Origin: an uncultured Gammaproteobacteria bacterium
GTDB taxonomy: Bacteria; Patescibacteriota; Microgenomatia; UBA8517
Direction: 5' to 3'
Length of the DNA: 64,000 nucleotides
NCBI GenBank assembly: GCA_964599625.1
Contig: CAZRGC010000001.1
Coordinates: 244,959-308,958, forward strand
This document shows positions 1,544 to 52,244 of the stretch, piece after piece. A model generated the notes under the pieces. It did no database searches and was not told the DNA's origin. It saw only the letters and a list, made by a program, of their open reading frames with translations. The position numbers were made by a program, and so were the translations under genes. Numbering within the stretch: position 1 is the first letter of the stretch; each line of letters starts with the position of its first letter.

Positions 1544-4500
1544 GTGATCTCCCCATTCAAATATTTTAAAACTACCCATTCGCGCCTTTTTGCTTTATTT
1601 CTGGTGTTTGTTTTTCTTGTTGCCGGACTTTACACAAAGTTTTTTCAAAATAAACTTCAGACCGAGGCCGGGTACCAATCTCCACAAATCTTTGTTTATG
1701 GCGGTGAAAACAGTTTTAGTGCAGGTGGCCTTATATCCTTGGCATCTACCGACGAGGCTGCGGTCCAGGTGGGAGGTTATAACATTTCGGGAAGCGCAGT
1801 TATCGATGTATACAAAGCCAACAAAGACCTACTTTTGGATTATTTGATTCACGACAAAGAAGGCAAGCAAGTAAAATCCAAGCCTGATGTTTCCAAGTTG
1901 GAGTTTGTTGGAACCACAACTCATAACATAAATACGGGTTCGTATGAAGGATCAAAAGTTCCTCTGCCTTTGTCGGAAACTGGTATTTGGTATCTCAAAG
2001 TCAAAATTGGAAATGTAAATACTGACGCCTTTGTGCTTAGGACGGGATTTGGTGTCTTAGCTAAAGAAGGTGACAATGAGTTTGTTTTTTGGGGTCAGGA
2101 CTTTAAAACCAAAAGAAGTATCGGATCTGGAACGATTAGTGTTTTGAATCTTAAAGATTCGGTATCCAGCCTTTATCAGACAGATTTTGATAATAGTGGG
2201 TTGGCCCGAGGTAATATTTCGGAAAATGCCGACATTGCTTTGGCGCAATTTGGCGAACAACTGGCAGTTGTTCCTTTGAATCTTAAATACTTAAACGTCG
2301 CTTCATACAAATCATATGTAGAAAAAGCCAGGAATACAAACTACTTTGTATTTACTGACAGGCCTTTATATAGTCCTGGTGATAAAGTGTTTTTCAAAGC
2401 TGTTATCAGAAACGACGACGACGCGCGTTACACGATTCCCTCCGGAAGTGCCAAAGTAAAAATATCTTCGGGCTGGGGGGAAGAAGAGTTTGTTTTAGAG
2501 AAAAACTACCCCATATCCCCCGACGGAACAGTATCCGGTGAGTACAGCATACCCGCGGATGCAAAACTGGGTTGGTACAACATGCAAATTAGTACAGGTG
2601 AATCGACGACTGTTAATTGGGGCGAGTCACATTGGTACAACGGCAGTGTTAGCTTTGATGTCCAGTTTTATCAAAAACCAGAGTATTCTGTTGACGTTAC
2701 TACACCAAAAACAGAGCTTGTCGCGGGAGATATGGCTGCGTTCACAATAGAGGGTAATTATTTTTCCGGACAACCCATGAGTGGCCAAAAGGTCAAATAC
2801 AGAGTGGCAGCCTCTGATTATTACGACTACAACTACTTTAGCGATGCTTCTTCCTTGCGATCTGCAATTTCGTCTGAATATAGATATGGTTACTACGGAT
2901 CTCATACAGTTTTGGAAGGGACAACGGTGTTAGACAAAAACGGCAGAAAAGATATCGAATTTGAAACGAAGATGGACTTTAATAGCGGCAAAAGTCAGGT
3001 TTTCACTATAGAAACAACTCTTGAGGACAACTCTCAAACACCGTCTTTTGCCAGAAGAAACGTTTTGGTTTACGCAGGTCGATACGGGATTTACAGGACC
3101 GATTACTCATACGGAAGTAAAGTAAACACAAAGCTCGATCTTCCTGTGCGTCTTTATGCCTATGATCAGGATGCAAGTTTGGGGAATGTGCAACTGGTTG
3201 GGAAAGTGCACTGGGAAACTTGGGAAAAGTACACTGATCCAAATCAGAAATATCCTCAGTACAGAAAAGTTGAGTCAGATCTGTCTGATATTAAAGCCAC
3301 AACCGATTCGTCTGGCAAAGCGATTTTAAGTTTCGTCCCTGAAAAATTGGGTTATTACAGAATTACTGTTCAGGGCAAAGATTCCAGAGACAATCTTATT
3401 GCTAACACATTCTATTCATACGTCACCGATCAAGATCAGCCCGCCTTTACCCAAGGCGGTGGAGAAGAAATAACTGTCAGTGCTGACAAGCAGGTGTATA
3501 ACCCGGGTGAAACTGCAAAACTAGCAATTTATTCAAAAACACCAGATAGAGATGTGTTTCTTTCGATGGAACGCGGTAGGGTAAACAGGTTTCAGGTTTT
3601 GCATCTAAATGACAATAAATCAACTATAGACATGCCTGTTTTGGATACCGACATCCCAAATATCTTTGCCAAGGTGTCATCTTTTGCGGCTTCGGCACTT
3701 GATTCCAATTCCATAAACATTAAAGTCTCAACTCTCAGCAAAAAAGTAATAGTAGATCTGAACTTTGATAATAAAAAATACGCGCCGGGTGATGATGTAA
3801 ACGTAAAAGTAACAACAAAAGACGGCCTTGGTCAGCCTGTTTCTGCAGACGTTGCACTCTGGGCTGTAGACAAGGCCATATTCGAACTTTCAGACAATAC
3901 ACTGGGGGATATATTCGAAAACTTTTGGAATGAAAGAGGAAACACAACTCAGGAAGATCACTCGCTGGAAGGAATTGTTGCCTATAGCGCAGAAGGTGGA
4001 GGATGCTTCTTGCCCGGTACAAAGGTGCTTATGGCTGACGGAAGTCAAAAAAATATTGAGGATGTCAAAAAGGGTGATTTGGTGCTTACCCGTTCGTCCG
4101 AAGCAAACGACAAATTGGTAAAAGCAAAAGTTTTGTCTACCACAAAAGCCCGTGAGTCAGGTTATTTAACAATAAACGGCACCCTCAAAGTGACTCCTAA
4201 TCATATAATTTGGGCCAATGGTGTCTGGAGAGAGGCGGGAAGTATTGAACTGGGAGACACTCTCAGAAATTCCCAAAATCAGAATGTTTTGGTTTACTCC
4301 AAAGAATGGCAAAGATACACCACGGATGTATACAATTTGAGCGTAGAAAAATACCACACTTATTTTGCAGATGGAGTCTTTGTTCACAACCAAAAAGGTG
4401 ACGCCAGAAGTACGTTTAAAGACACTGCGTACTGGAATCCCAGTATCAAAACAAACGCAAGCGGTGTCGCAAACGTCACTTTCAAACTTCCGGATAATTT

Positions 4501-6667
4501 GACAACATGGACAGTTGCTGCTGTTGCCAACACAACCGACACCAAAGTGGGTCAGACAACCAGCGAAATTGTGGTTACCAAAGACGTGATAGTGAGACCG
4601 ATATTGCCCAATATAATGAGGCTTGGTGACAACATAGTTATATCTGCATTGATACAAAATTCTACAGATGCTGATAAAAACTTTGACATAGACCTGAAGT
4701 TTGACTCGGGTGAGGTGCTTTCAAGATCGTTCAAAAATGTTCAAGTTGGTTCGGGTAGCGTTGAACGTTTTGCTTGGGAGATAAAACCCTCCAAGGAGTC
4801 AGAGGGTTCCAGTCTGGAGATTTCCGCCAAAGCCACAGATAATTCAGAAGCTCAGGACACAATTATTTCCAAAGTTGCAGTGATCCCTTTTGGATTTTTT
4901 GAGAATTTTGCAGAAACTGGCGAGGGCAATAAAAATTTTAAGGTCAGTCTATCTTCAAATATATCCAAAACAAAATCAGATATCAGATTGTCGCTTTCAC
5001 CTTCGATATTGGGAACTTTGCCAACAGCAATGAAATATTTGGTGAATTATCCGTATGGTTGTACAGAACAGATAACCAGTCGGTTTGTACCCGCAATTAT
5101 TGCCAAAGCAAATCAACAGCTATTTTCTGAAGCGCTCCAAGACAAAGATGTGAATGAAATGATTGAGACCGGTGTTGCCAAATTGCTTAATTCTCAGATG
5201 GGTAATGGCGGGTGGACCTGGTGGTTTACGGGCAACGCAGATCCGTTTATCACTTCATACGTTGCTGAATATTTGTCATATGCAAACAAACTTGGATATA
5301 AAGTTGATAAAAATGCGATGAATAGGGTTAAGGGGTATTTGGCAAGCAAGACCTATTATGACTACAAACAGCAGAAAGAAGTTAGTTTTACTGACGCCGA
5401 GTTAACTGCCAAAAATTACGGGCTCGTGATGTTGGGAGAAACGAAAAATTTGTCCAAAGTAAATTTGGATAACCTTCAACCGGACATGTTGGCATTGGCT
5501 GTTATTGTAAACTCAATGTCCGGCAACAAAAATTCCGCAACAAACGGTCTGGATAAACTTATTTCAATGGCTCAAGTTCAGGGCGACACTGTTTATTGGA
5601 ACGAAGGTGACAAAGTTAATTTTGGATCAAAAGACGCCTCGACTGCTTTTGCGATAAGGGCAATAATTGCCTCCGGCGGAGACCGTGAATTAGCTGTAAA
5701 GGCGGCCAGATATTTAGTAAGAAACAGAAAGTCTGATTATTGGTCTAACACTTTTGCAACGGCACAGGTTGTGCGCGCGCTCACAGATCTCTCTAAAACA
5801 GCAGGCGAAGCAAACCCAAGTTTCCTTTACACGGTTACAATGGACGGAAAAGAGTTGGCAAATGGGCAAGTTAAAAATGTCAAAGATACAATTGAAGACA
5901 TTGTGATTGATCCGAACAAAATAAACCAAAAAGGTTCGGATATCAAAATTGTAATGGAAGGCGAGGGTCAGCTTTATTCCACATTGGTTTCCAAATTGTT
6001 TGTCACAGATACAAAAGCAGAACCTGTCAAAAACGAACTTTCAATCAAACGCGAATATATTAACGAGAAGGGCGAAGAGTATGCATTGGCCGTTGGGGAC
6101 AGTGTTGTTGTCAAGCTAACAGTAACAGGTCCGCAGGCGCCAGAGCGTTACGGTGCAATTACAGATGAGCTGCCGTCTGGAATGGTCCCTGTTAACCCTG
6201 GTTTCAAAAACGAACAATACGGGGAAAGCCCGCTGCCAAAGTACTTCTCCTCCTCTTATGTCACTGGAATGGATGTGACCCAAAATGGCGCAGTGCTCTC
6301 TTTGTACACAATAGAGCCTGGTGTAAGTACCTACACATATCGCGCTAGAGTTGTGAGTGCAGGAAAATTCACAGTTCCTCCTGCAACAGTTTCGCTAATG
6401 TACGCACCGGAAATATATGCCAGAACTGGCGTGCAGGTGGTGACAATTGCCAGTGAATCCAAACTGATACCTGCAGCAGCATTGGGAGTTTTTCTTAAAA
6501 AATATGTGGTAAGCATTGTAATTGCAGTGCTGGGAATGATTGGTGTTATATCCCTGGTCATAAAAGCCAAAAAGACAGGGTTTAGTCTAGCCAATCTAAA
6601 AACCAGACTCGCAAAGATCTTCAATAAAAAAAACGACCACCCGCCCATAACCCCTGACGTTCAATGA
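1544..6667 (+). CDS. Bacterial alpha-2-macroglobulin-like protein (1707 aa) with N- and C-terminal TM anchors and an inserted Hint domain
   Basis: Size and domain order match bacterial A2M (YfhM/ECAM-like). The thioester motif YPYGCTEQ is at nt 5057-5071. The post-bait A2M signature TFKDTAYWNPS...LPDNLTTWTVAAVA is present. N-terminal (LFALFLVFVFLVAGL) and C-terminal (VVSIVIAVLGMIGVISLVI) hydrophobic helices flank the protein. GTG start at 1544 follows a GAGGA about 16 nt upstream. Confidence 0.8.
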   Translation: MISPFKYFKTTHSRLFALFLVFVFLVAGLYTKFFQNKLQTEAGYQSPQIFVYGGENSFSAGGLISLASTDEAAVQVGGYNISGSAVIDVYKANKDLLLDYLIHDKEGKQVKSKPDVSKLEFVGTTTHNINTGSYEGSKVPLPLSETGIWYLKVKIGNVNTDAFVLRTGFGVLAKEGDNEFVFWGQDFKTKRSIGSGTISVLNLKDSVSSLYQTDFDNSGLARGNISENADIALAQFGEQLAVVPLNLKYLNVASYKSYVEKARNTNYFVFTDRPLYSPGDKVFFKAVIRNDDDARYTIPSGSAKVKISSGWGEEEFVLEKNYPISPDGTVSGEYSIPADAKLGWYNMQISTGESTTVNWGESHWYNGSVSFDVQFYQKPEYSVDVTTPKTELVAGDMAAFTIEGNYFSGQPMSGQKVKYRVAASDYYDYNYFSDASSLRSAISSEYRYGYYGSHTVLEGTTVLDKNGRKDIEFETKMDFNSGKSQVFTIETTLEDNSQTPSFARRNVLVYAGRYGIYRTDYSYGSKVNTKLDLPVRLYAYDQDASLGNVQLVGKVHWETWEKYTDPNQKYPQYRKVESDLSDIKATTDSSGKAILSFVPEKLGYYRITVQGKDSRDNLIANTFYSYVTDQDQPAFTQGGGEEITVSADKQVYNPGETAKLAIYSKTPDRDVFLSMERGRVNRFQVLHLNDNKSTIDMPVLDTDIPNIFAKVSSFAASALDSNSINIKVSTLSKKVIVDLNFDNKKYAPGDDVNVKVTTKDGLGQPVSADVALWAVDKAIFELSDNTLGDIFENFWNERGNTTQEDHSLEGIVAYSAEGGGCFLPGTKVLMADGSQKNIEDVKKGDLVLTRSSEANDKLVKAKVLSTTKARESGYLTINGTLKVTPNHIIWANGVWREAGSIELGDTLRNSQNQNVLVYSKEWQRYTTDVYNLSVEKYHTYFADGVFVHNQKGDARSTFKDTAYWNPSIKTNASGVANVTFKLPDNLTTWTVAAVANTTDTKVGQTTSEIVVTKDVIVRPILPNIMRLGDNIVISALIQNSTDADKNFDIDLKFDSGEVLSRSFKNVQVGSGSVERFAWEIKPSKESEGSSLEISAKATDNSEAQDTIISKVAVIPFGFFENFAETGEGNKNFKVSLSSNISKTKSDIRLSLSPSILGTLPTAMKYLVNYPYGCTEQITSRFVPAIIAKANQQLFSEALQDKDVNEMIETGVAKLLNSQMGNGGWTWWFTGNADPFITSYVAEYLSYANKLGYKVDKNAMNRVKGYLASKTYYDYKQQKEVSFTDAELTAKNYGLVMLGETKNLSKVNLDNLQPDMLALAVIVNSMSGNKNSATNGLDKLISMAQVQGDTVYWNEGDKVNFGSKDASTAFAIRAIIASGGDRELAVKAARYLVRNRKSDYWSNTFATAQVVRALTDLSKTAGEANPSFLYTVTMDGKELANGQVKNVKDTIEDIVIDPNKINQKGSDIKIVMEGEGQLYSTLVSKLFVTDTKAEPVKNELSIKREYINEKGEEYALAVGDSVVVKLTVTGPQAPERYGAITDELPSGMVPVNPGFKNEQYGESPLPKYFSSSYVTGMDVTQNGAVLSLYTIEPGVSTYTYRARVVSAGKFTVPPATVSLMYAPEIYARTGVQVVTIASESKLIPAAALGVFLKKYVVSIVIAVLGMIGVISLVIKAKKTGFSLANLKTRLAKIFNKKNDHPPITPDVQ
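4004..4390 (+). other. Hint (intein/BIL-like) domain embedded in the A2M ORF, 129 aa, Cys1 ... His-Asn, followed by Gln
   Basis: Intein blocks are readable in the translation: A = CFLPGTKVLMADGS, B = TPNHIIW, F = VYNLSVEKYHTYFADG, G = VFVHN. The next residue is Q (caa at 4391-4393), not C/S/T. No endonuclease domain, so it is mini-intein sized. Confidence 0.7.
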
Positions 6668-7572
6668 GAAAAGTGCAATCACTTTTCTCCACCTCCAGTG
6701 TGAAAAAGGTGGCGGCCTTTGTTATTTTTTTAATCATCATTTTTTGCGTTCCGTATTTTTTGGTTCAGGACAAAAAAGCGTTTACTCAGGAAAAAAAGTA
6801 TAACCAAATAATATATTTTGATCAGGAGGAATTTACGAAAGGTATTTCCAAAGCAGACAAACCCATAGAACCAAAAGACTATGCAATAAGGGGTGGTGTT
6901 GTTCCCCATCATCTTTTGGCGGGATATATAATTGCTGATTTTTTTCAGAAGTTGGCATATCAAAAACCCGGCACAATAATTTTGGTTGGGCCAAACCATT
7001 TGGAAGCAGGTGAATATAAAGTTTTATCCGGCACAAACTCTTGGAATACACAGTATGGCGTTATTGATGTCAACAAAAAAATTGTGGGAGATTTGGTGGA
7101 GAAAAATCTTGTGCAAATTAATGATAAAGTGTTGGAAGAAGACCAGTCGGTGTCCGCCCCCATGACCTTCATCGCATTTTTTATGCCATATGTAAAAGTT
7201 GTACCTTTGCTTCTGAGTTCACGGATGACAAATGATGATTTGATTAGTCTTTCAGACTCCCTCGGCGATTTGTTAAAAGATGAGAAAACTGTATTGGTGT
7301 CGTCGGTAGACTTTTCTCACTATCTAAGCTTTGACGAGGCTCAGGCGCGCGACTTGGAATCTATTACTTCAATCAAAAAATTCGGGTGCCAGAAACTACT
7401 TACTTATGATAGCCAACACATGGATTCTCCTGCTTCGATATGTACTCTTTTATATTCAATGTTAAATATAGGAGCCACAAATATAGAAGTGGACACACAC
7501 GACAATTCTGCAAACATCCAAAAGTCACAAAAAGATAACACCACAAGTTATTTTTCTATATATTTCCACTAA
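6664..7572 (+). CDS. Memo-like / AmmeMemoRadiSam system protein B family protein with N-terminal TM anchor
   Basis: Motifs GVVPHHLLAGY, LVGPNH and SVDFSHY resemble the MEMO1/extradiol-dioxygenase-like family signatures. N-terminal hydrophobic helix present. Confidence 0.5.
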   Translation: MRKVQSLFSTSSVKKVAAFVIFLIIIFCVPYFLVQDKKAFTQEKKYNQIIYFDQEEFTKGISKADKPIEPKDYAIRGGVVPHHLLAGYIIADFFQKLAYQKPGTIILVGPNHLEAGEYKVLSGTNSWNTQYGVIDVNKKIVGDLVEKNLVQINDKVLEEDQSVSAPMTFIAFFMPYVKVVPLLLSSRMTNDDLISLSDSLGDLLKDEKTVLVSSVDFSHYLSFDEAQARDLESITSIKKFGCQKLLTYDSQHMDSPASICTLLYSMLNIGATNIEVDTHDNSANIQKSQKDNTTSYFSIYFH

Positions 7573-7587
7573 TGTTAAAATAATTAG

Positions 7588-8280
7588 ATGAAGAACAAGT
7601 TTTTAGGTTTATCAATTGTTGCAGCTTGGACAATTTCAATCGGAATAGGTGTGTATTCCATATTTTCTGCAACTCCATTGAATGTCATAAAGTCACCAAC
7701 AATACTAACCAACCTTCTTCAGAGAGTTACGGGAATAGTGGCGTTTATTCTACTTTTTTATCAGATATTGTTTGGGGCTTTTATGCCGTATCTTGCAGAA
7801 AAAACTGGAGGCATTATCTACAAGATCCATATTTATCAAGGCGTTTTGATATACACATTGATCTTGGCTCATCCTGTTTTCTTCCTTCTGTTTAATCATT
7901 TTGCCGGCAGGGGAGTGGATCCTTATTACGTTTTTAGTCAGGTTTGTTTCATATGCCAAAGCAAAGGGGAGGCTTACTACACATTTGGAAGAATTTCTTT
8001 CTGGTTAATAAACATAACTGTTTTTGCGGGTCTTTTTAGAACAATCAATCATTTTATGAGGGTTAATTGGAAGAAGTTCCATTTGTTGAATTACCCGGTT
8101 TTTGTTTTGGTGGGTATTCATGGTTACTTTGTGGGAAGTGATTTTTCTACTCAGCCATTTTTTGGCATGGCAATTTTGTTTTCTTTAGTATTTATGTTTG
8201 TACTTATCAAGAAAGCTCCGGAGTTATTTGCAGATTTTATGAAGTGGTTAAAAAGAGTTGATCGGGTACCGGTCACTTAA
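7588..8280 (+). CDS. Multi-TM protein with ferric-reductase-like (FRD/MsrQ-like) bis-heme His pairs
   Basis: About six TM helices. Two His-x13/x12-His pairs sit in predicted helices (HIYQGVLIYTLILAH and FHLLNYPVFVLVGIH), as in FRD / cytochrome b-type domains. Confidence 0.5.
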   Translation: MKNKFLGLSIVAAWTISIGIGVYSIFSATPLNVIKSPTILTNLLQRVTGIVAFILLFYQILFGAFMPYLAEKTGGIIYKIHIYQGVLIYTLILAHPVFFLLFNHFAGRGVDPYYVFSQVCFICQSKGEAYYTFGRISFWLINITVFAGLFRTINHFMRVNWKKFHLLNYPVFVLVGIHGYFVGSDFSTQPFFGMAILFSLVFMFVLIKKAPELFADFMKWLKRVDRVPVT

Positions 8281-8300
8281 TTTCAAAATGTGACCGGTAC
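8266..8300. terminator. Perfect 11-bp inverted repeat (gtaccggtcac / gtgaccggtac) with 13-nt loop between convergent genes; likely bidirectional terminator
   Basis: Hairpin seen directly. It overlaps the stop codon of the 7588-8280 gene and lies 12 nt from the stop of the 8312-8860 minus gene. Confidence 0.5.
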
Positions 8301-8311
8301 TCCGTATCCGA

Positions 8312-8860
8312 TTATGGCTGATTGTAAAACCGATAGCCGGTGACTTCACCTTTTTTGTTCACGATTAGAACAATGTTTTGGGCTCCGTCAAAGCTTTGGT
8401 ACTCTCCGATATTATCGGGGTGATAAATATAAACGTTACCCGAGGTGTCTGTGAACGTGAGTTCGTAGGTCTCACCAAAGGTTCCGTTGTTTATCCGTTC
8501 GCCTGGTACCAAAACAGGTTGTTCCCATTTGGGTAGGAAGTCTGCTGCACCGGCTTGACCGTATCGGAAGTGGCGCCATTCGTCCATTGTGTAGTCGCAA
8601 TAGTAGTTGTAGACGGTTTCCTCGTCTTCCAGATGCGACTCGCTCCAGCAGTGTGTGTTGTATGCACCTGCGGGTGCATATGAACGTTCCTCGTGATTGT
8701 ATTCAACGGCTTGAATCGTTTCTATGGAAACGCTCATTTCCCACACTTTTGATGTCAGGTTAACATTGACTTCGTGTGTTGCTGAGTTTACGGCGCTTCG
8801 GATCAAAATGGCGATTCCTGCCAGAACCAAGATTACAAAGAATATGTTTCTGAGTTTCAT
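8312..8860 (-). CDS. Small secreted/membrane-anchored protein, paralog family member 1 (182 aa)
   Basis: N-terminal signal/TM (FFVILVLAGIAILI). C-terminal motif TFTDTSGNVYIYHPDN is shared with the two downstream paralogs. GGGAG RBS before the ATG. Locally GC-richer. Confidence 0.6.
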   Translation of the reverse strand: MKLRNIFFVILVLAGIAILIRSAVNSATHEVNVNLTSKVWEMSVSIETIQAVEYNHEERSYAPAGAYNTHCWSESHLEDEETVYNYYCDYTMDEWRHFRYGQAGAADFLPKWEQPVLVPGERINNGTFGETYELTFTDTSGNVYIYHPDNIGEYQSFDGAQNIVLIVNKKGEVTGYRFYNQP

Positions 8861-8991
8861 GGTAACTCCCGAAATCTTGTTAAAAAGTGCTACTGGGGGA
8901 TTTTAGCACAATCTGAAGCTAAAGTCAAACTATAGGGTTTTAATGGAAATACCGGTCAAATTGGCTGTCTGGCCGGCATTTCCAAATATTC

Positions 8992-9528
8992 TCACTTAAC
9001 GCTTATGAGAGCGCCCCAAATATTGAAGCCGCCTACATAAACCTCGTCTTCCTTGAAACTGACAAAACGGGCCTGGTCGTAGACCAGCTTTTGGTAGGTG
9101 TTACCTGCTGAGTCCTCGAAATACACCTGCATGAGTGTCTCCAAGCTGTCTTCATCCAGCTTCTCGCCGTTTGCGAGTTGAGCGGTTGGCTCGATGACAT
9201 TTTGGTCATGGTTGTCCAAGGTGACATATCTGGATGTTACCCAGTCCATGTATTCAAAGGTGTAGAGGATATACGCGTCTCCGTTGCAGGAGTCGGGGCT
9301 GATACATTTGCTCTTGTCGTACTCAGTTCGTTTCGAGGTAACCGTTGCGCCTTCGGGCACTTCTTTACCCTGGTCTACCACTTTCTGGTAGGTCAGAACG
9401 CTGTATTGTGTTTTCCAGTAGAAATCTGTGGCATGCATATCCACATATTTCACAGGTAATACAACCGAAAAAAACAAGCCGACAACAACGATTATCAAGG
9501 CACCAATGCCTAAATATTTTTTGTTCAC
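8992..9528 (-). CDS. Small membrane-anchored protein, paralog family member 2 (GTG start; 178 aa)
   Basis: GGAGG lies 6 nt upstream of GTG at 9526-9528. TM helix GALIIVVVGLFFSVVL. C-terminal motif VYFEDSAGNTYQKLVYDQ. Confidence 0.6.
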   Translation of the reverse strand: MNKKYLGIGALIIVVVGLFFSVVLPVKYVDMHATDFYWKTQYSVLTYQKVVDQGKEVPEGATVTSKRTEYDKSKCISPDSCNGDAYILYTFEYMDWVTSRYVTLDNHDQNVIEPTAQLANGEKLDEDSLETLMQVYFEDSAGNTYQKLVYDQARFVSFKEDEVYVGGFNIWGALISVK

Positions 9529-9630
9529 GCAAGCCTCCAAAATTGGAAAATGTGCTAATCGAAGCCTGAATGGTAGCACAAAAAGTGAGCAGTTTGCAAA
9601 CTATAGGGATATCATATGAAGTTTGATCGG

Positions 9631-9665
9631 GTACCGGTCACTTAATTTCAAAATGTGACCGGTAG
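9631..9665. terminator. Second copy of the gtaccggtcac hairpin (10-bp stem), part of a ~45-nt duplicated segment
   Basis: Positions 9624-9664 are near-identical to 8259-8299. The copy includes a relic mini-ORF MKFDRVPVT* (9615-9644) that mirrors the C-terminus ...RVDRVPVT* of the 7588-8280 gene. Confidence 0.45.
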
Positions 9666-9680
9666 CCCGTCCGATGATTG

Positions 9681-10220
9681 CTAATCAATGTCCAAGAGGA
9701 ACCCAAAAAGATTGTATTGGCCAACATACTCGCCAATCAAACTGTAGCTTTGGAATTCTTCTGGGTCAGATGGTTCCCACATGTATGCGTAGCCACTTGA
9801 GTCAACGAAGTATATAACCATGTAGAGAGTCTCGCTCCCCTCCACGATTTTTTCGTTTTCTGCAAGTACAGGCATGGGTGTGGTTGGGAGTTGATTGTAA
9901 CCGTAGGTTGAAACCTGTCGGACAAACTCCGTGTACGTTGTTGTAAACGTAAACCACTGATATGGATTACCAAGGCAATCATCTTCGCGTGTGGGGCATG
10001 TGGTGCGGTCCGTTTTGGTCTCCATCCCGGTGGGAAGAGAACCTGTAGGGATCTTTCTGCCCTGGCCTGTAAAGTCGTGTGACGCGGCCACGTCGGCAGT
10101 CATGCGCCAAAAGTACCCCTGAACCTTCATTGACCTGCGCTCGACAGGATAATAAGCTACCCCGAGCACAAAAATGGTCAATATAGTGATTGTTATAAGC
10201 AATCCTTTGTGGTTACTCAT
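9681..10220 (-). CDS. Small membrane-anchored protein, paralog family member 3 (179 aa)
   Basis: TM helix LLITITILTIFVLGVAYY. C-terminal motif IYFVDSSGYAYMWEPSDP. GAGAGG RBS upstream. Confidence 0.6.
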   Translation of the reverse strand: MSNHKGLLITITILTIFVLGVAYYPVERRSMKVQGYFWRMTADVAASHDFTGQGRKIPTGSLPTGMETKTDRTTCPTREDDCLGNPYQWFTFTTTYTEFVRQVSTYGYNQLPTTPMPVLAENEKIVEGSETLYMVIYFVDSSGYAYMWEPSDPEEFQSYSLIGEYVGQYNLFGFLLDID

Positions 10221-10312
10221 CTGAACCTCTCTTGAACAATGTTAATAAGTGCAATACGGAATACCTATAGTAACACAACCGAGGCTAAAAGTCAAGTATT
10301 ATGGGATACCGA

Positions 10313-12568
10313 TTACCTTCTGTAGTCGTCTTTCAAGCAGTCTTCCACTGGGGTCTTGCTTTGGAATTCAATCGTTTTGGACTTAGTTCCAAAACCTGAC
10401 AAATTGTACTCTTTGTATAATGTTCTGCCGTTTGATAAGAACTGGGCCACAATTACACTGGTTTTTGATTTGTCTGCAATTAGCCTGAACTTATATTTCC
10501 CGTCTTTTGGGTTAGTTATGGAGATCATTCCCTGTTCACTTTGGTAGGTTTTGCCGTATTTGTCGGTTATCCAAAAATTTCCAGATGATGCAACCACAAC
10601 AAGGGCGGATTTTGGATCGTGATATGGGGGATCAGGGATGCTGGGTGATCCTAAAAACTCAAGAATCGAAGAAATACCTTCGGTTGAAGCAACCAACCCT
10701 GAATGTGATTGGTTTATAACTTTATTGTCTGCATTGTCGATTTGAGCACTACTAACAAGAACCGCACCGTCTCCAGATGTTGTGTTAATTTCACCGACGG
10801 GTTTACCGTCTAGCCACAACCCCTTCTTAACATCAGATTTGGATGGATTAGTTACTCTAATTTTCTCTAAAGTTGGGAATCCTGATCCGGATAGAGTTCC
10901 AACCTTTACGTCCCAAAAAGGATAGCTAAAACTGGTTGGTAAGTAATTATTTTGGGCAATCATGGTATTTACCGGCTTTAGCGACCCATTTTTTTGAATA
11001 TAGTCAGTTGTCGGCAAAAGGTTTTGAATTGATTCAGGCACTCCACAGTGTTTCAAAAACAAAGTTTTGGAAATCCTATCAACTAAATCATTACCCCAAA
11101 CTTCGTGTCCGGAATAAAGTGGATAAGAAATCGCAGAACCTTTGTTTGGCGCACCTGCCATCAAAAGCTTTTTTGCCTTTCCACCTAATTCATTTTCAAC
11201 ATAAGCCCTGCCCAAAAGTCCGCCCATGCTGTGGCCAACTATGTTTACTTTTTCTGCGTTGGGCGCAACTGAATCAATGAATGTCGCCAGTTTTGGTTCA
11301 TTGTTTAATATCTTATCCCTCCAGTCAAAATAGAAAGGTATGGTGTTCCACCCAGCATTTTCTAGTGAAGTTGTAAGATCTGCATACACATCCTTTGCGT
11401 AAGGTGCCAATGTCCAGTTGCCAACATAACCTTCTTTTTTGCAGGAAATAAACGCGTCAAGATTCCAACTGGCACCAGTTCCGGGAATTAATACAACCTT
11501 ACTTGAAGTTACCGGTACAGGAGACGGACTTGGTGTTGGGGTTGGTGAGGGTGGTGTGTCAGGGGTATAACTCATTTTCCAAACATGGTTTGTGTAGTCA
11601 CCATTTGCAACACCGCCAATAAGATAAAGATTGTTTCCAGATGCAATAAGCTGCCCACAGCAGTTTGTCTCGGGTAATTGTGGTCCGTTTTGCCAAACAC
11701 CAATCGTTCCATCTGTGTTGATTTCTGAGTAATAAACATTTTGAGTTCCATCACCTGCGATCACTAATGTGTTTGCAACCCTTGCCAGTCCAAACCTCCA
11801 CATTCCCACAGGAAGATTTGTTAGGTTTTCCCATGTACCAATTGAACCATCAGGGTTTATTGGTGCTCTAATAACTTGGTTTGAATATCCAGAAGGTGTA
11901 AAACCACCAAAAACAACAAGATGGTTATTGATAACTATCATAGAATGACCTTCTGTTTTTTCTGGCAAATTTCCTGCTGTTCTCCATGCACCAATTGTTC
12001 CGTCTGGGTTAATGTCAGAGACGTAAACTGATGTGCTGGCAAGGTTTGGGTTGTTCGCCTGACTGGATAAGGTGTTTCCGCCAGAAAAGAAAATCATATT
12101 GTCTGATACAACACTGGCACCTAAAGAAAGTGTTTGTGGTAATGGTGTTAAGTTTGTCCAAGATGAAATGTTACTATTTTCAAGTAGACCTAGCCACACC
12201 TCACCTGTATTGTTGAAGGAAGTGTCTGCGCCACCGAGAAGATATACATAGTTGCCACTTGTTGCTCCACTCAACCAATATCTGTTTGGTGGTTGTGTAG
12301 CGTTTGTGTTCCAGGCGGACAATGTTCCCGAGACTGTGACTGTTGTATTGAATCCAGTGTTGGGAACAGTGTTGTTTGCACCCCCTAGGTTAAACAAGCT
12401 ATTATCATTTGAAAATGCAAAGTTACTTGCAATCTGTAGCGGCAGATTTTCTTCCTGGATCCAATTTGATAATCCACCAGTCGCAAAAACAAGTCCTGAA
12501 CCTAGTACAAAACAGACCAAAATTACTATCACCAGAGACAACGATCTAGTAAGATAATTTTTGCTCAC
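10313..12568 (-). CDS. Secreted Kelch-repeat beta-propeller protein fused via a Pro/Thr linker to an alpha/beta-hydrolase (lipase-like, GHSMGG) domain; GTG start
   Basis: Signal/TM at N-terminus. Repeated Kelch-like blades (YLLGGAD, MIFFSGGNT, HLVVFGGF, LYLIGGVANG). Linker TPDTPPSPTPTPSPSPVPV. C-terminal domain carries the nucleophile-elbow motif VNIVGHSMGGLLGRAY (GxSxG). Confidence 0.7.
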   Translation of the reverse strand: MSKNYLTRSLSLVIVILVCFVLGSGLVFATGGLSNWIQEENLPLQIASNFAFSNDNSLFNLGGANNTVPNTGFNTTVTVSGTLSAWNTNATQPPNRYWLSGATSGNYVYLLGGADTSFNNTGEVWLGLLENSNISSWTNLTPLPQTLSLGASVVSDNMIFFSGGNTLSSQANNPNLASTSVYVSDINPDGTIGAWRTAGNLPEKTEGHSMIVINNHLVVFGGFTPSGYSNQVIRAPINPDGSIGTWENLTNLPVGMWRFGLARVANTLVIAGDGTQNVYYSEINTDGTIGVWQNGPQLPETNCCGQLIASGNNLYLIGGVANGDYTNHVWKMSYTPDTPPSPTPTPSPSPVPVTSSKVVLIPGTGASWNLDAFISCKKEGYVGNWTLAPYAKDVYADLTTSLENAGWNTIPFYFDWRDKILNNEPKLATFIDSVAPNAEKVNIVGHSMGGLLGRAYVENELGGKAKKLLMAGAPNKGSAISYPLYSGHEVWGNDLVDRISKTLFLKHCGVPESIQNLLPTTDYIQKNGSLKPVNTMIAQNNYLPTSFSYPFWDVKVGTLSGSGFPTLEKIRVTNPSKSDVKKGLWLDGKPVGEINTTSGDGAVLVSSAQIDNADNKVINQSHSGLVASTEGISSILEFLGSPSIPDPPYHDPKSALVVVASSGNFWITDKYGKTYQSEQGMISITNPKDGKYKFRLIADKSKTSVIVAQFLSNGRTLYKEYNLSGFGTKSKTIEFQSKTPVEDCLKDDYRR

Positions 12569-15173: not shown

Positions 15174-15524
15174 CTAGTCGCCGCCTGCTCCGTAGAGCCT
15201 ACAGATCATTGGGCTGAATACGCCTGACGTACATCGTCCGGAAATCGGATCGGGTTTGTTCGTGCCATCATAGGTAATCTCCATCTCGAAGGTAACATCG
15301 TGTGAGTCACCAAACCACCATTGGTTGTTGTTCGAGTGGCGAATTACTTCGATCTGGCTGGTTTCAACCTCGGCAAGTTCCGCGAAGCGCGCAACTGCTT
15401 TTTCTTCCGTGACTTTGTTGATGCCGCCGACGAGGCCCGCGATGATGTAGAAGATCACCAGAAAAGCAACCGATATGGCAAGCTCGACATCAGCCTGTCC
15501 ACGTTCAGAGAGTTTGAATCTCAT
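15174..15524 (-). CDS. Hypothetical protein with TadE-like N-terminal segment (116 aa)
   Basis: N-terminal ERGQADVELAISVAFLVIFYIIAG resembles the TadE/pilin-like motif (G..VEFALv + hydrophobic helix). GC-richer than surrounding DNA. Confidence 0.4.
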   Translation of the reverse strand: MRFKLSERGQADVELAISVAFLVIFYIIAGLVGGINKVTEEKAVARFAELAEVETSQIEVIRHSNNNQWWFGDSHDVTFEMEITYDGTNKPDPISGRCTSGVFSPMICRLYGAGGD

Positions 15525-15615
15525 CGATATATTCTCCTTGTTATGTGCAAACGAACTGCATAATTATCTCACAAACAGGCACAAAAGTCAAGATTATGGG
15601 GTGTTTTTGACACAA

Positions 15616-15685: not shown

Positions 15686-15907
15686 TTAATCGGCACCTTC
15701 GACTTCGGGGATCATGAGGTCGGTATCTGTTATCGTCAGCGTCAAAAGTGACCCGTCGCGCGTTGAAAGCGTGATTTTGTACGGATCTTGGCCAAGATCT
15801 GCACCAATTGGCGGGATATGAGCTGACTTTACCTCGAAACCTGGGTGAAACCCGGTCAAAAGTACGCCAAAGGCAGTGATTTTGTCAGGGGTGTTTAGAT
15901 TGGGCAT
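15686..15907 (-). CDS. Hypothetical small protein (73 aa)
   Basis: GAGGAG RBS 2 nt before ATG. No recognisable domain. Confidence 0.45.
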   Translation of the reverse strand: MPNLNTPDKITAFGVLLTGFHPGFEVKSAHIPPIGADLGQDPYKITLSTRDGSLLTLTITDTDLMIPEVEGAD

Positions 15908-15913
15908 TTCTCC

Positions 15914-16096
15914 TCACGGTAAATGTATTCCGGCTGTTGCCATCCATATGGCGTAAAGAGTCAAGAATAGCAGAAAGACAAATAGACATGTGAATGCCGT
16001 CATACATCTCCAGATCAACCCCAGATCTCTTGAGTTTAGTGCAATGCTCAGAAGAGCGCACATTGATAGTGCAACGGACATTTGTAAAAGGAACAC
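15914..16096 (-). CDS. Hypothetical small two-TM membrane protein (60 aa, GTG start)
   Basis: AAGGAG RBS 5 nt upstream of GTG. Two hydrophobic helices. Confidence 0.4.
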   Translation of the reverse strand: MFLLQMSVALSMCALLSIALNSRDLGLIWRCMTAFTCLFVFLLFLTLYAIWMATAGIHLP

Positions 16097-16207
16097 ATTT
16101 ACTCCTTATTTGTGTCAAAAAGTGCAAGTCTAAATTCTAGCTCATTTCTCCTCCTAATTCAAATTATAGGGTATGAATTAATCTTGGGCATAGAGTAGAA
16201 TAAGGCA

Positions 16208-50989: not shown

Positions 50990-51209
50990 AACTCTGAGTA
51001 TTTTATCACGGTACAAGCAAATTTCCGAGTGGCAAGCTTTGCTCACCAATAATAGTCTTTGGCAGCGTTAAGTTTTCACCTTGCGTTTGGTAAACATTCA
51101 GGCCGAAGTTTTTTTATCCTATAACTTGATTTTCTACACAATAAGGGGTAAAATTTGGCCTTAGTTTTTAATTGCACATTTCAAGAAAATTACGCGAAAG
51201 GACATATCT

Positions 51210-52244
51210 ATGTTCAAGAAAATTTTGCCCGTCATTTTTGCGGTTTCGCTCTTGATCACCGCATGCGGGGCCGGAATGGGCGAAGCGCCTGTTAACCCAG
51301 ACGGCTGTTCGTACGATTACAGCGTCACTTTTTACGGCGCGAACGTTGATCCGTTGGAACTCAAAATCACATCCCACGCAAGTTGGGTGCAGGACGAGGA
51401 TGATCCAGAATATTACCATCTTGTCGTTGATAACGACGAAGTTTGGCAGGGTCTGGTTGCCCGTCACAATGACGTTGTTGCCAAGCTCAACGCTGGCCTT
51501 TCGTTGTTGTTTGTGGATTCAGAATTCCTTCAAGGAGCCAAGTATTCCGAGATGGACGGTGAACCTGTTTCACTCACCTCCTCAAGCTATCGTGAGTGTC
51601 CAAACCCCGAGCAGTATGGGTTCTGGGACAACGGTTTTTATCACGGTTTGCCTTTTGAGGAGATGGACAACAACGGATACCTCACTTCAACCCGTATTGG
51701 TGACACAACGACGTTTGTCGAAGTGCGATCGGCGAAGAACAGTGTTGTGAACTATTCGTTCCCAACGGCTTATCTTGAGACGATTTACAACTACGCTTTC
51801 GGCCGCGGTGAGACAAACCTTTCACTCGATGCCCAATATGTGGAAATACCCCGCCCCGACATGCCCGACGGACTCACTTACTCGCAAGCAATGCTTGATC
51901 AAATGGTGAATGCCGACGCAGACGGCCGCGAAGCTGTTTCTTTCACCCTTAACATCGAGGACTTTGAAGGACGCGCCCAGCTTAAGCCTGTGATAGCCAA
52001 AGGCATCGAACTTGCCGCGGCGCAAGAAGGCAGTCCTGTACTTGCGACCATTCATGCGATGATGAGTTCGGGTCAGCGCCAGATCGCATATGCCAGTATG
52101 CACGGAAGTTTCTCCATCAAAGGAGCCTTCTTCCTTGGTATTGGTGGAGTCAATGGCGGCGGCTATATCGACGGTCAGGCCGGCAGTAATGCCTGGTTCG
52201 AAGATGTGGTGAAGGCTTCGGTCTACATCACTCCGCAAGAGTAA
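51210..52244 (+). CDS. Hypothetical lipoprotein (signal peptide + lipobox LITAC), GC-rich
   Basis: MFKKILPVIFAVSLLITAC|GAG. Confidence 0.6.
   Translation: MFKKILPVIFAVSLLITACGAGMGEAPVNPDGCSYDYSVTFYGANVDPLELKITSHASWVQDEDDPEYYHLVVDNDEVWQGLVARHNDVVAKLNAGLSLLFVDSEFLQGAKYSEMDGEPVSLTSSSYRECPNPEQYGFWDNGFYHGLPFEEMDNNGYLTSTRIGDTTTFVEVRSAKNSVVNYSFPTAYLETIYNYAFGRGETNLSLDAQYVEIPRPDMPDGLTYSQAMLDQMVNADADGREAVSFTLNIEDFEGRAQLKPVIAKGIELAAAQEGSPVLATIHAMMSSGQRQIAYASMHGSFSIKGAFFLGIGGVNGGGYIDGQAGSNAWFEDVVKASVYITPQE

Follow-up and report, generated by a model that had tools for sequence, protein, structure and literature searches.

How did three small genes that lie one behind the other on the same strand come to be there, and what does a short, nearly perfect repeat beside two of them say about the time of their multiplication? 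The locus that raises these questions is part of a 64,000-nucleotide (nt) stretch of DNA (contig CAZRGC010000001.1 of assembly GCA_964599625.1, positions 244,959 to 308,958; below, the window), in which the genes, called here A, B and C, run on the minus strand between a convergent membrane-protein gene and an upstream lipase-like gene. A first-pass annotation of the window, made from the sequence alone, had proposed that A, B and C are paralogues encoding small secreted proteins, and that a repeated hairpin containing the end of the membrane-protein gene is the relic of a segmental duplication. We think it likely that A, B and C are long-diverged tandem paralogues belonging to an uncurated family of membrane-anchored proteins, that each gene forms an autonomous cassette, and that the array arose by tandem duplication.

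Three tandem paralogues in three cassettes

The genes are defined by the following open reading frames (ORFs).

8312-8860, minus strand: gene A (ORF), 182 amino acids (aa); short N-terminus, one transmembrane (TM) helix, beta ectodomain, C-terminus ...GYRFYNQP
8992-9528, minus strand: gene B (ORF and sequence), 178 aa; GTG start with GGAGG ahead of it
9681-10220, minus strand: gene C (ORF), 179 aa

For gene B an alternative, longer ORF of 195 aa extends to 9579. All three translations have an N-terminal hydrophobic helix. The genes are true tandem paralogues: in BLASTP comparisons B and C share 29% identity over 154 residues (E=2e-19), A matches C with E=1e-6 and B with E=3e-3, and an alignment of the three proteins has 22 invariant columns. 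The similarity is significant beyond the hairpin repeat, and the initial description as three minus-strand paralogues of about 180 aa is correct. Pairwise identity among the paralogues is only 17-28%; A is the most divergent of the three types, and C is the type nearest to the single-copy genes of related genomes. The C-terminal motif first given as (Y/F)x(D/E)(D/T)SGNxY is roughly right, the three proteins reading FTDTSGNVY, FEDSAGNTY and FVDSSGYAY, and the whole family F.D..G..Y.Y. A C-x5-7-C loop is present in B and C, and one database protein (P0001) is identical to B.

Each gene is flanked by a predicted promoter and a predicted hairpin.

8900-8935, minus strand: promoter of A, CCCTATAG-TTGACT-17 nt-TGcTAAAAT (10/12 with TG)
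9570-9608, minus strand: promoter of B, CCCTATAG-TTGCAA-18 nt-TGcTACCAT (recognised by eye, under the scan threshold)
10267-10304, minus strand: promoter of C, CCCATAATAC-TTGACT-17 nt-TGtTACTAT (9/12 with TG)
8258-8305, no strand assigned: hairpin hp1, copy 1, arms 8266-8276 and 8290-8300 around a 13-nt loop; 3' end of cassette A
8944-8984, no strand assigned: hairpin hp2, GGAAAUGCCGG...CCGGUAUUUCC; 3' end of cassette B (inverted repeats and folding)
9623-9670, no strand assigned: hairpin hp1, copy 2, same as copy 1 at 46/48 positions, loop identical; 3' end of cassette C

All three promoters are sigma-70-like, with a TGn-extended -10 element and an upstream motif of the CCCTATAG type. That of A is the best sigma-70-like site of the region and is homologous to the promoter of C and to those of two related loci (L001 and L005, see below); it shares the 12-nt motif CCCTATAGTTTG with the promoter of B. 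In each cassette a leader motif, (T/A)GCAC(A/T)TTT, and a Shine-Dalgarno site are present. The promoter/leader regions of A and C can be aligned in the window (p=0.0045) and in L001 (p<0.0005), and about 70 nt of the region of C align with the corresponding region of single-copy L005 or L010 (p<0.0005). The cassette unit is about 670 bp long, and the spacing of repeat D4 is 671 bp. Judged by these predicted elements, each gene is an autonomous cassette consisting of promoter, leader, Shine-Dalgarno site, gene and hairpin.

A module of this kind, CC[C/T]ATA[A/G]..TTGA, 17 nt, an extended -10 element and, about 10-20 nt further on, (T/A)GCAC(A/T)T, is found ahead of at least six genes whose products are small proteins of envelope type, A, B and C among them. 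The other sites are at 51119-51179 (plus strand), 15543-15599 (minus strand) and about 16120-16170 (minus strand), and a strict regular expression for the module found 3 sites where 0.04 were expected. The module may mark a regulon or a strong-promoter class.

An uncurated family of probably membrane-anchored proteins

Word-indexed homologue searches returned close relatives only. When 1.84 billion representatives were searched exhaustively with a profile, 199 proteins scored at E<1e-3, each of them the representative of a cluster at 50% identity, and a word-indexed search with a 36-sequence domain alignment gave 14 matches, all 'hypothetical' or unnamed. A, B and C match the profile of these 36 sequences with E=3.6e-45, 8e-47 and 9e-45, respectively. 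The family has a common layout, a single TM helix followed directly by an ectodomain of about 150 aa, with 0, 2 or 3 zinc ribbons on the N-terminal side. The zinc-ribbon part of the relatives contains 4 or 6 CxxC motifs and is of the DZR, RanBP-type or Zn_Ribbon_1 kind. The conserved motifs of the ectodomain are W...IE, P.GA, Y.Y...W..R, G.D..P.WP, ER, F.D..G..Y.Y and N..G, and in its middle there is an insertion that varies and is often rich in Cys. A, B and C represent the short form of this layout, made up of 3-6 cytosolic residues, the anchor and the ectodomain. A hydropathy scan puts the beginning of their TM helix at residues 1-4 and that of the domain at residues 25-27, the spacing being that of the long relatives, and AlphaFold2 predicts a helix at residues 3-23. 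None of the three has a CxxC motif ahead of the domain, and a zinc ribbon is also missing from many other short members.

The ectodomain is homologous to that of zinc-ribbon single-pass membrane proteins (DZR PF12773, Zn_ribbon_RanBP PF00641, Zn_Ribbon_1 PF13240; hidden Markov model E-values down to 1e-12 for the long forms), of which the curated models reach only the zinc ribbons. Unlike these relatives, the window proteins lack the zinc ribbon and almost the entire cytosolic part, and their Cys-rich middle insertion is shrunk to the C-x5-7-C loop.

Since the homologous segment of more than 100 relatives lies inside the chain, after cytosolic zinc ribbons, the hydrophobic segment of A, B and C is most likely an uncleaved type-II membrane anchor (N-terminus in, C-terminus out), and the proteins are probably anchored in the membrane, not secreted as had been supposed. 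The competing explanation is that they are secreted soluble factors (effectors, toxins or bacteriocin-like proteins) whose N-terminus is a cleaved signal peptide. Their N-termini are indeed short and positively charged, with a stretch of 16-20 hydrophobic residues next to them, a plausible cleavage site (G-V-A) is present in C, and genes of secreted enzymes (the Kelch-lipase and an alpha-2-macroglobulin, A2M) adjoin. We nevertheless consider secretion unlikely: in the more than 100 homologues the segment lies mid-protein, after 60-200 cytosolic residues with zinc ribbons, the conserved domain starts just 2-5 residues past the segment, A and B have no A-x-A-type site, and no toxin, immunity or defence family of Pfam, NCBIfam or PHROGs was matched.

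Searches of these three libraries with A, B, C and 50 relatives gave no match to the ectodomain; all significant matches fell in the zinc-ribbon region. Sequence-profile searches of the PDB returned only noise or weak matches to the hydrophobic helix of pilins. The class III signal of pilins has G at -1, a hydrophobic N-terminus and Glu at +5. Type IV pilins and pseudopilins were rejected as relatives: the entries 6xxe, 7tgg and 8qqj matched at E=0.1-0.3 and over the hydrophobic helix only, and the N-termini of the three proteins (MKLRNIFFVIL, MNKKYLG/IGALI, MSNHKG/LLITI) have no E5.

The layout of the long members, in which one TM helix separates a cytosolic Cys4 zinc motif from a long extracellular chain, is similar to that of Staphylococcus aureus TcaA (NCBIfam NF053815) and Lactococcus Llmg_0526. 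These proteins are envelope-stress or cell-wall-associated (PMC4628341, citing McCallum 2007), and TcaA is described there as induced by envelope stress. Long relatives match the TcaA model with 17-25 bits, against a cut-off of 550, and only over the zinc ribbon and the TM helix (profile positions 3-72); A, B and C had no match to NF053815 in the NCBIfam search. We regard TcaA as a layout analogue and not as a member of the family; the ectodomains have no detectable sequence similarity.

An AlphaFold2 model built with the 36-sequence alignment (pLDDT 95.8, pTM 0.77) consists of an N-terminal half, in which residues 5-32, 40-49 and 63-85 of the mature domain form three long strands, and a compact C-terminal half with five strands and one short helix. 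Foldseek searches of the PDB with two models found no credible match (best TM 0.24, E >=0.04); MspA, secretins and class II fusion proteins, which look similar in having long beta-hairpins, were rejected at TM <=0.24. The only structural match of high probability came from the BFVD database and was A0A2U7N8F9, a 162-aa protein of Pseudomonas phage PspYZU05 (probability 1.00, E=2.5e-3, TM 0.42 over 169 columns). With 14% identity and an E-value above 1e-3, this match is no more than suggestive of a structural relative. A family member of 186 aa, P0160, is encoded in a phage-like gene array (locus L016, 5001-5561, of an 82-kb Logan contig from SRR26786814), where its neighbours are genes for an Acb2/Tad1-hairpin protein, an RF-1-like protein, a D12 methyltransferase, a dNMP kinase and a thymidylate synthase. 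The P0160 sequence occurs on at least 24 contigs. A tblastn search of 50,697 phage genomes with C and P0160 gave no match, and neither did a scan of IMG/VR with P0160.

Copy number and age of the array

Related contig loci, numbered with L-codes (L001 is from GCA_964600575.1, CAZRJH010000001.1), share the same gene order: glycosyltransferases and a methyltransferase, the lipase gene, the family gene or genes, the convergent membrane gene, a Memo gene and an intein-containing A2M gene. At the same site the lineages carry either one copy of the family gene (L005/L006, L010/L011 and L014) or three (the window, L001 and L009, the last with two complete genes and a partial C-type gene at the contig edge), thus the copy-number variation that the first-pass annotation suggested looking for does exist. 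A close-alignment profile scan of the genome contigs matched only the relative that was already known.

Orthologues of all three types were found in the three-copy genomes. The A orthologue of L001 (P0006) is 61-62% identical, the B orthologues of L001 and L009 are 67% and 76% identical, and C and its L001 orthologue are 49% identical. Neighbouring genes are 47-70% identical between the window and L001, a range that includes the values of A, B and C (49-67%). Because A, B and C each have orthologues there, the triplication predates the split of the three-copy genomes; it is old, given the low identity of the paralogues (17-28%). In the comparison with L001 pN is 0.21-0.34 and pS about 0.75; synonymous sites are saturated, hence dN/dS cannot be estimated for this pair. 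As pN is well below pS, the three genes are under ordinary purifying selection. In a neighbour-joining (NJ) tree the single-copy genes group with C, with 34-42% identity (34-37% for P0011 and P0012).

One of the three slots has diverged much more than the rest of the locus. Between the window and L009, nucleotide identity is 85% for C, 81% for the C-B spacer, 74% for B and 70% for the B-A spacer, drops to 51% for A, and is 82% for the hairpin and 76% for the membrane gene. The A slot (8312-8860, compared with 1147-1695 of L009) is thus hyperdivergent, with 34% protein identity, and the A-type protein of L009 lacks both cysteines. Judged by these alignments, a single cassette seems to have undergone allelic replacement or accelerated evolution. 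A more far-reaching reading would make the ectodomain a new fold and a widespread juxtamembrane surface module, A, B and C a hetero-oligomer that works with the operon of A2M, Memo and a haem membrane protein, and the A slot a hot spot of allelic replacement in phage/host conflict, exchanged via the promoter and hairpin arms; we find this combination quite unlikely.

The array resembles variable surface-protein arrays in having co-oriented paralogues, conserved promoter and terminator flanks, a varying copy number and one divergent slot. It differs from them in that A, B and C are only three, old and under purifying selection, and in that nothing points to switching, to silent copies or to a recombinase.

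The hairpins and the 48-nt repeat

The segment of about 45 nt that had been noticed twice (8259-8299 and 9624-9664) is real, and as a direct repeat it extends to 48 nt (8258-8305 and 9623-9670) with 46/48 identical positions (96%). It coincides with an entire extended stem-loop. Its inverted repeat, GTACCGGTCAC / GTGACCGGTAC, forms the 11-bp hairpin of the first description, which is perfect in copy 1; copy 2 has a single mismatch (CTACCGGTCAC). The 11-nt arm, allowing at most one mismatch, occurs six times in the window, against 0.32 expected by chance, and 4/6 of these occurrences are hairpin arms. In RNA folding the 11-bp core of hp1 is lengthened by CGG/CCG and GAU/AUC pairs, giving one long hairpin on either strand (-27 kcal/mol, z=-6.2 for copy 1; -25.7 kcal/mol, z=-6.0 for copy 2). 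Hairpin hp2 folds with -21.1 kcal/mol (z=-5.7); overall, the hairpins folded have stems of 11-17 bp, energies from -20 down to -27 kcal/mol and z-scores from -3.4 to -6.2. The sequence TGACCGGTA is common to hp1 and hp2, and hp2 may be a diverged copy of hp1.

Copy 2 of hp1 has orthologous counterparts in L009 and L001. In the counterparts of hp2 in the same two loci the stem sequence has changed and a hairpin fold is still predicted. When eight hairpins were aligned, 92% of the cells were paired, compared with at most 38% in slid controls, and compensatory double changes were seen at three pairs (GC->AU/UA, GC->AU, CG->UA); these two observations show that pairing is under selection. The two hp1 copies are nearly identical, loops included, in the window and in L009, whereas the copies in L001 are 80-93% alike and differ in their loops. 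Such near-identity fits selection on pairing plus occasional gene conversion, the latter being probably part of the cause. The 96% identity of the repeat is no sign of recent duplication, because the proteins share only 17-28% identity and orthologues of all three types exist in other genomes.

We infer that the hairpin acts at the 3' end as a terminator or stabiliser. Like bidirectional intrinsic terminators, hp1 is a G+C-rich stem-loop located after stop codons and between convergent genes; unlike them, the hairpins of this locus have a long loop (11-13 nt), and neither strand has a U-tract immediately behind the stem, the full hairpins being followed by CCCGAUCAA on the gene strand and by UCCGUAUCC on the plus strand. 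All that a terminator scan picked up was a minor sub-stem of 7 bp, on the plus strand. The hairpin may be a 3'-end stabiliser, a factor-dependent terminator or a protein-binding palindrome. Rfam identified three tRNAs in the window and no match at the locus.

It is also conceivable that the hairpin is a mobile or recombination element (REP/MITE-like or attC-like) and that the genes are captured, exchangeable cassettes. An imperfect palindrome follows each gene and the array is uni-directional; the A slot, with its 51% nucleotide identity between flanks of 70-85% in the comparison with L009, might be taken for an exchanged cassette, its type groups with distant relatives, and the conserved flanks could serve as homology arms. 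We hold this explanation to be very unlikely. Each of the cassettes has a promoter of its own, the called genes within 10 kb on each side in the syntenic locus include no integrase or transposase, and the B and C orthologues track the relationships of the genomes. The hp1 hairpin is present at just these two sites within 64 kb, an exact-pattern scan of metagenome contigs returned only two unrelated matches (high-GC terminators of actinobacterial type), and single-copy loci have the same hairpin in the same place. Integron attC sites were rejected specifically: there is no RYYYAAC/GTTRRRY pair, there are no R/L boxes or extrahelical bases, and the cassettes have promoters.

The tail of the membrane gene

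Hairpin hp1 copy 1 is shared by cassette A and the convergent membrane gene (7588-8280), whose last 7 codons cross the left arm of the hairpin. The gene ends with GAT CGG GTA CCG GTC ACT TAA, passing through the left arm to a stop codon in the loop. Downstream of gene C a mini-ORF running from ATG 9616 to TAA 9645 reads MKFDRVPVT*, thus both peptide readings of the first-pass annotation, DRVPVT* for the gene end and MKFDRVPVT* for the putative relic, are present in the sequence. Their interpretation has to be changed. The membrane gene of L001 stops at a TGA inside TTGATCGGG, and in single-copy L005 and L010 it stops at GAT TGA, 7 nt ahead of the stem. Read-through into the loop occurs in the window/L009 clade only, by a 1-nt frame difference, and makes the C-terminus of the protein 6 codons longer, into the hairpin. 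As L001, L005 and L010 stop before or at the foot of the stem, the DRVPVT codons are the 5' arm of the hairpin, read through in one clade, and not a copy of ancestral coding sequence. The mini-ORF is in itself no gene relic, and probably it is not expressed.

A different and less conspicuous remnant of the membrane gene seems to lie beside it.

9609-9625, no strand assigned: relic of the 3' coding end of the membrane gene, short and degenerate; between hp1 copy 2 and the promoter of B, overlapping the mini-ORF

In local alignments to the membrane-gene tail, the relic of L009 contains an 11-nt exact match (CTTCAACCATT, p=0.0016) with TGG TTG AAG, i.e. W L K; that of the window matches over 8 nt following a gap of 12 nt (p=0.049), and that of L001 has a gapped match with an A-run ahead of the Trp codon (p=0.17). 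The breakpoint of the duplication was probably about 8-10 codons inside the membrane gene, to judge from these alignments. The proposal that a segmental duplication took flanking sequence along stands to the extent that a membrane-gene tail relic is found beyond the C hairpin in the relatives as well; the evidence originally offered for it was the hairpin arm.

Neighbouring genes and base composition

The array is bordered by two genes.

7588-8280, plus strand: convergent membrane protein (ORF), 230 aa, polytopic; last gene of the A2M-Memo-membrane operon
10313-12568, minus strand: lipase-like gene, upstream and co-directional; exported Kelch beta-propeller and alpha/beta-hydrolase (Pfam; syntenic in relatives)

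The membrane gene is syntenic in every related locus. Ferric-reductase-domain (FRD) proteins have six TM helices and two bis-histidine haem motifs (H-x13-H and H-x12/13-H). Two predicted helices of the membrane protein contain H-x13-H (IHIYQGVLIYTLILAH) and H-x12-H (FHLLNYPVFVLVGIH), which resemble this bis-haem pattern; the profile match is weak, with no match in Pfam and a match to MsrQ at E=0.084 (12 bits, cut-off 130). The A2M homologue (1544-6667, plus strand, 1707 aa) has an inserted Hint/intein domain (CFLPGTKV...VHNQ), which the L001, L010 and L014 orthologues have retained (Pfam PT-HINT, Hom_end_hint). Its gene overlaps the exported Memo-like gene (6664-7572) by 4 nt.

It could be argued that the A, B and C proteins serve this A2M-Memo-FRD-like operon as extracytoplasmic partners or substrates and are, for example, redox-handled through their Cys pair. 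The family gene is convergent with, and adjoins, the FRD-like gene in 6/6 lineages with one hairpin between them, B and C have the C-x5-7-C loop, and the membrane protein has the two histidine motifs. However, the FRD assignment is as weak as just described, the A-type gene of L009 encodes no cysteine, no recurrent gene neighbourhood of this or another kind was found around distant family members, and convergent adjacency does not imply co-regulation. We regard such a partnership as decidedly improbable in this specific form.

The locus was also said to be richer in GC than its surroundings, which is correct. The GC content of A, B and C is 0.46-0.48, against a mean of 0.40, and ranks 2nd-4th among the 50 ORFs of the window; their GC3 is 0.51-0.59, against 0.38 for the window (standard deviation 0.06; z about +2 to +3.4). 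Because of this high GC3 and a strong promoter type shared with a lipoprotein gene, we predict that A, B and C are probably well expressed. That the triplet is a recent horizontal acquisition, e.g. of phage membrane proteins such as superinfection-exclusion factors, might be suspected from GC and GC3 well over the window mean, from P0160 in its phage-like contig and from the phage protein as best BFVD match, but is extremely improbable in view of the synteny of the locus in at least six related lineages, whose synonymous divergence is saturated, a promoter/leader module common to other native genes, the negative searches of the phage genomes and of IMG/VR, and the high GC3 of a native lipoprotein gene with the same promoter type.

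The lipoprotein gene (51210-52244, plus strand; predicted 344 aa, lipobox LITAC) has the promoter module of A, B and C, the highest GC content of the window's ORFs (0.51), a GC3 of 0.57 and no Pfam match. A further GC-rich segment, a gap of about 1.1 kb between glycosyltransferase and flippase genes, contains the small minus-strand ORFs 15174-15524, 15686-15907 and 15914-16096; one of them encodes a protein of 116 aa whose N-terminus is like that of type IV pilins (G/QADVE, Glu at +5), and another a hydrophobic protein of 60 aa. No outer-membrane biogenesis genes were noticed in the stretches examined.

Discussion

A likely history of the locus would start from an ancestor of the sub-lineage with a single-copy arrangement: the lipase gene, the family gene and the hairpin in one direction, and the membrane gene converging on the hairpin from the other side. 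A tandem duplication, whose direction is inferred, would have had its right-hand breakpoint a few codons into the membrane gene, and cassette C would thereby have retained a copy of the hairpin together with a tiny relic of the gene tail. Afterwards the hairpin copies would have been kept alike by selected pairing, and probably by gene conversion too, the G+C-rich stem-loop marking or stabilising the 3' end of the transcript.

Several observations do not sit easily with this history or with the anchored, autonomous cassettes that we favour. The NJ tree sets the A type outside the group formed by B, C and the single-copy genes, among distant relatives, although such a tree is weak at 17-20% identity; on this evidence A could be an older paralogue recruited to the locus and not a product of the same duplication. 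The statistics of the gene-tail relic are modest and the three genomes are not independent. Promoter similarity is in part that of a promoter class used by other genes of this genome, and the missing U-tract means that the hairpins are not canonical intrinsic terminators. Signal-peptidase cleavage of the short forms is conceivable, C having a possible G-V-A site.

As to the role of the proteins, our best guess, of low confidence, is a non-enzymatic (structural or adaptor) function associated with the envelope, because no catalytic motif or enzyme family was detectable. The long retention of three types suggests subfunctionalisation or a hetero-oligomer. A link to the A2M-Memo-membrane operon is possible, conserved adjacency being its sole basis.

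Tandem arrays of small envelope proteins are common, and the A/B/C array overturns nothing. It is an ordinary tandem paralogue array of an undescribed domain family, the fold of which is unmatched in the libraries searched. The locus carries a caution for the reading of similar ones: a near-identical short repeat is poor evidence of recent duplication, as the hairpins here are nearly identical and the proteins about 20% identical. With one or three copies in related lineages, and with the hairpin and a few codons of the neighbouring gene carried along, it is also a natural experiment in cassette duplication. The family itself is sizeable, with 199 clusters at 50% identity from bacteria and, it appears, also from phages, and has no Pfam, NCBIfam or PHROGs model of its ectodomain; having a confident structure model without a match among solved structures, it is a clear candidate for structural study and for being entered as a new domain.

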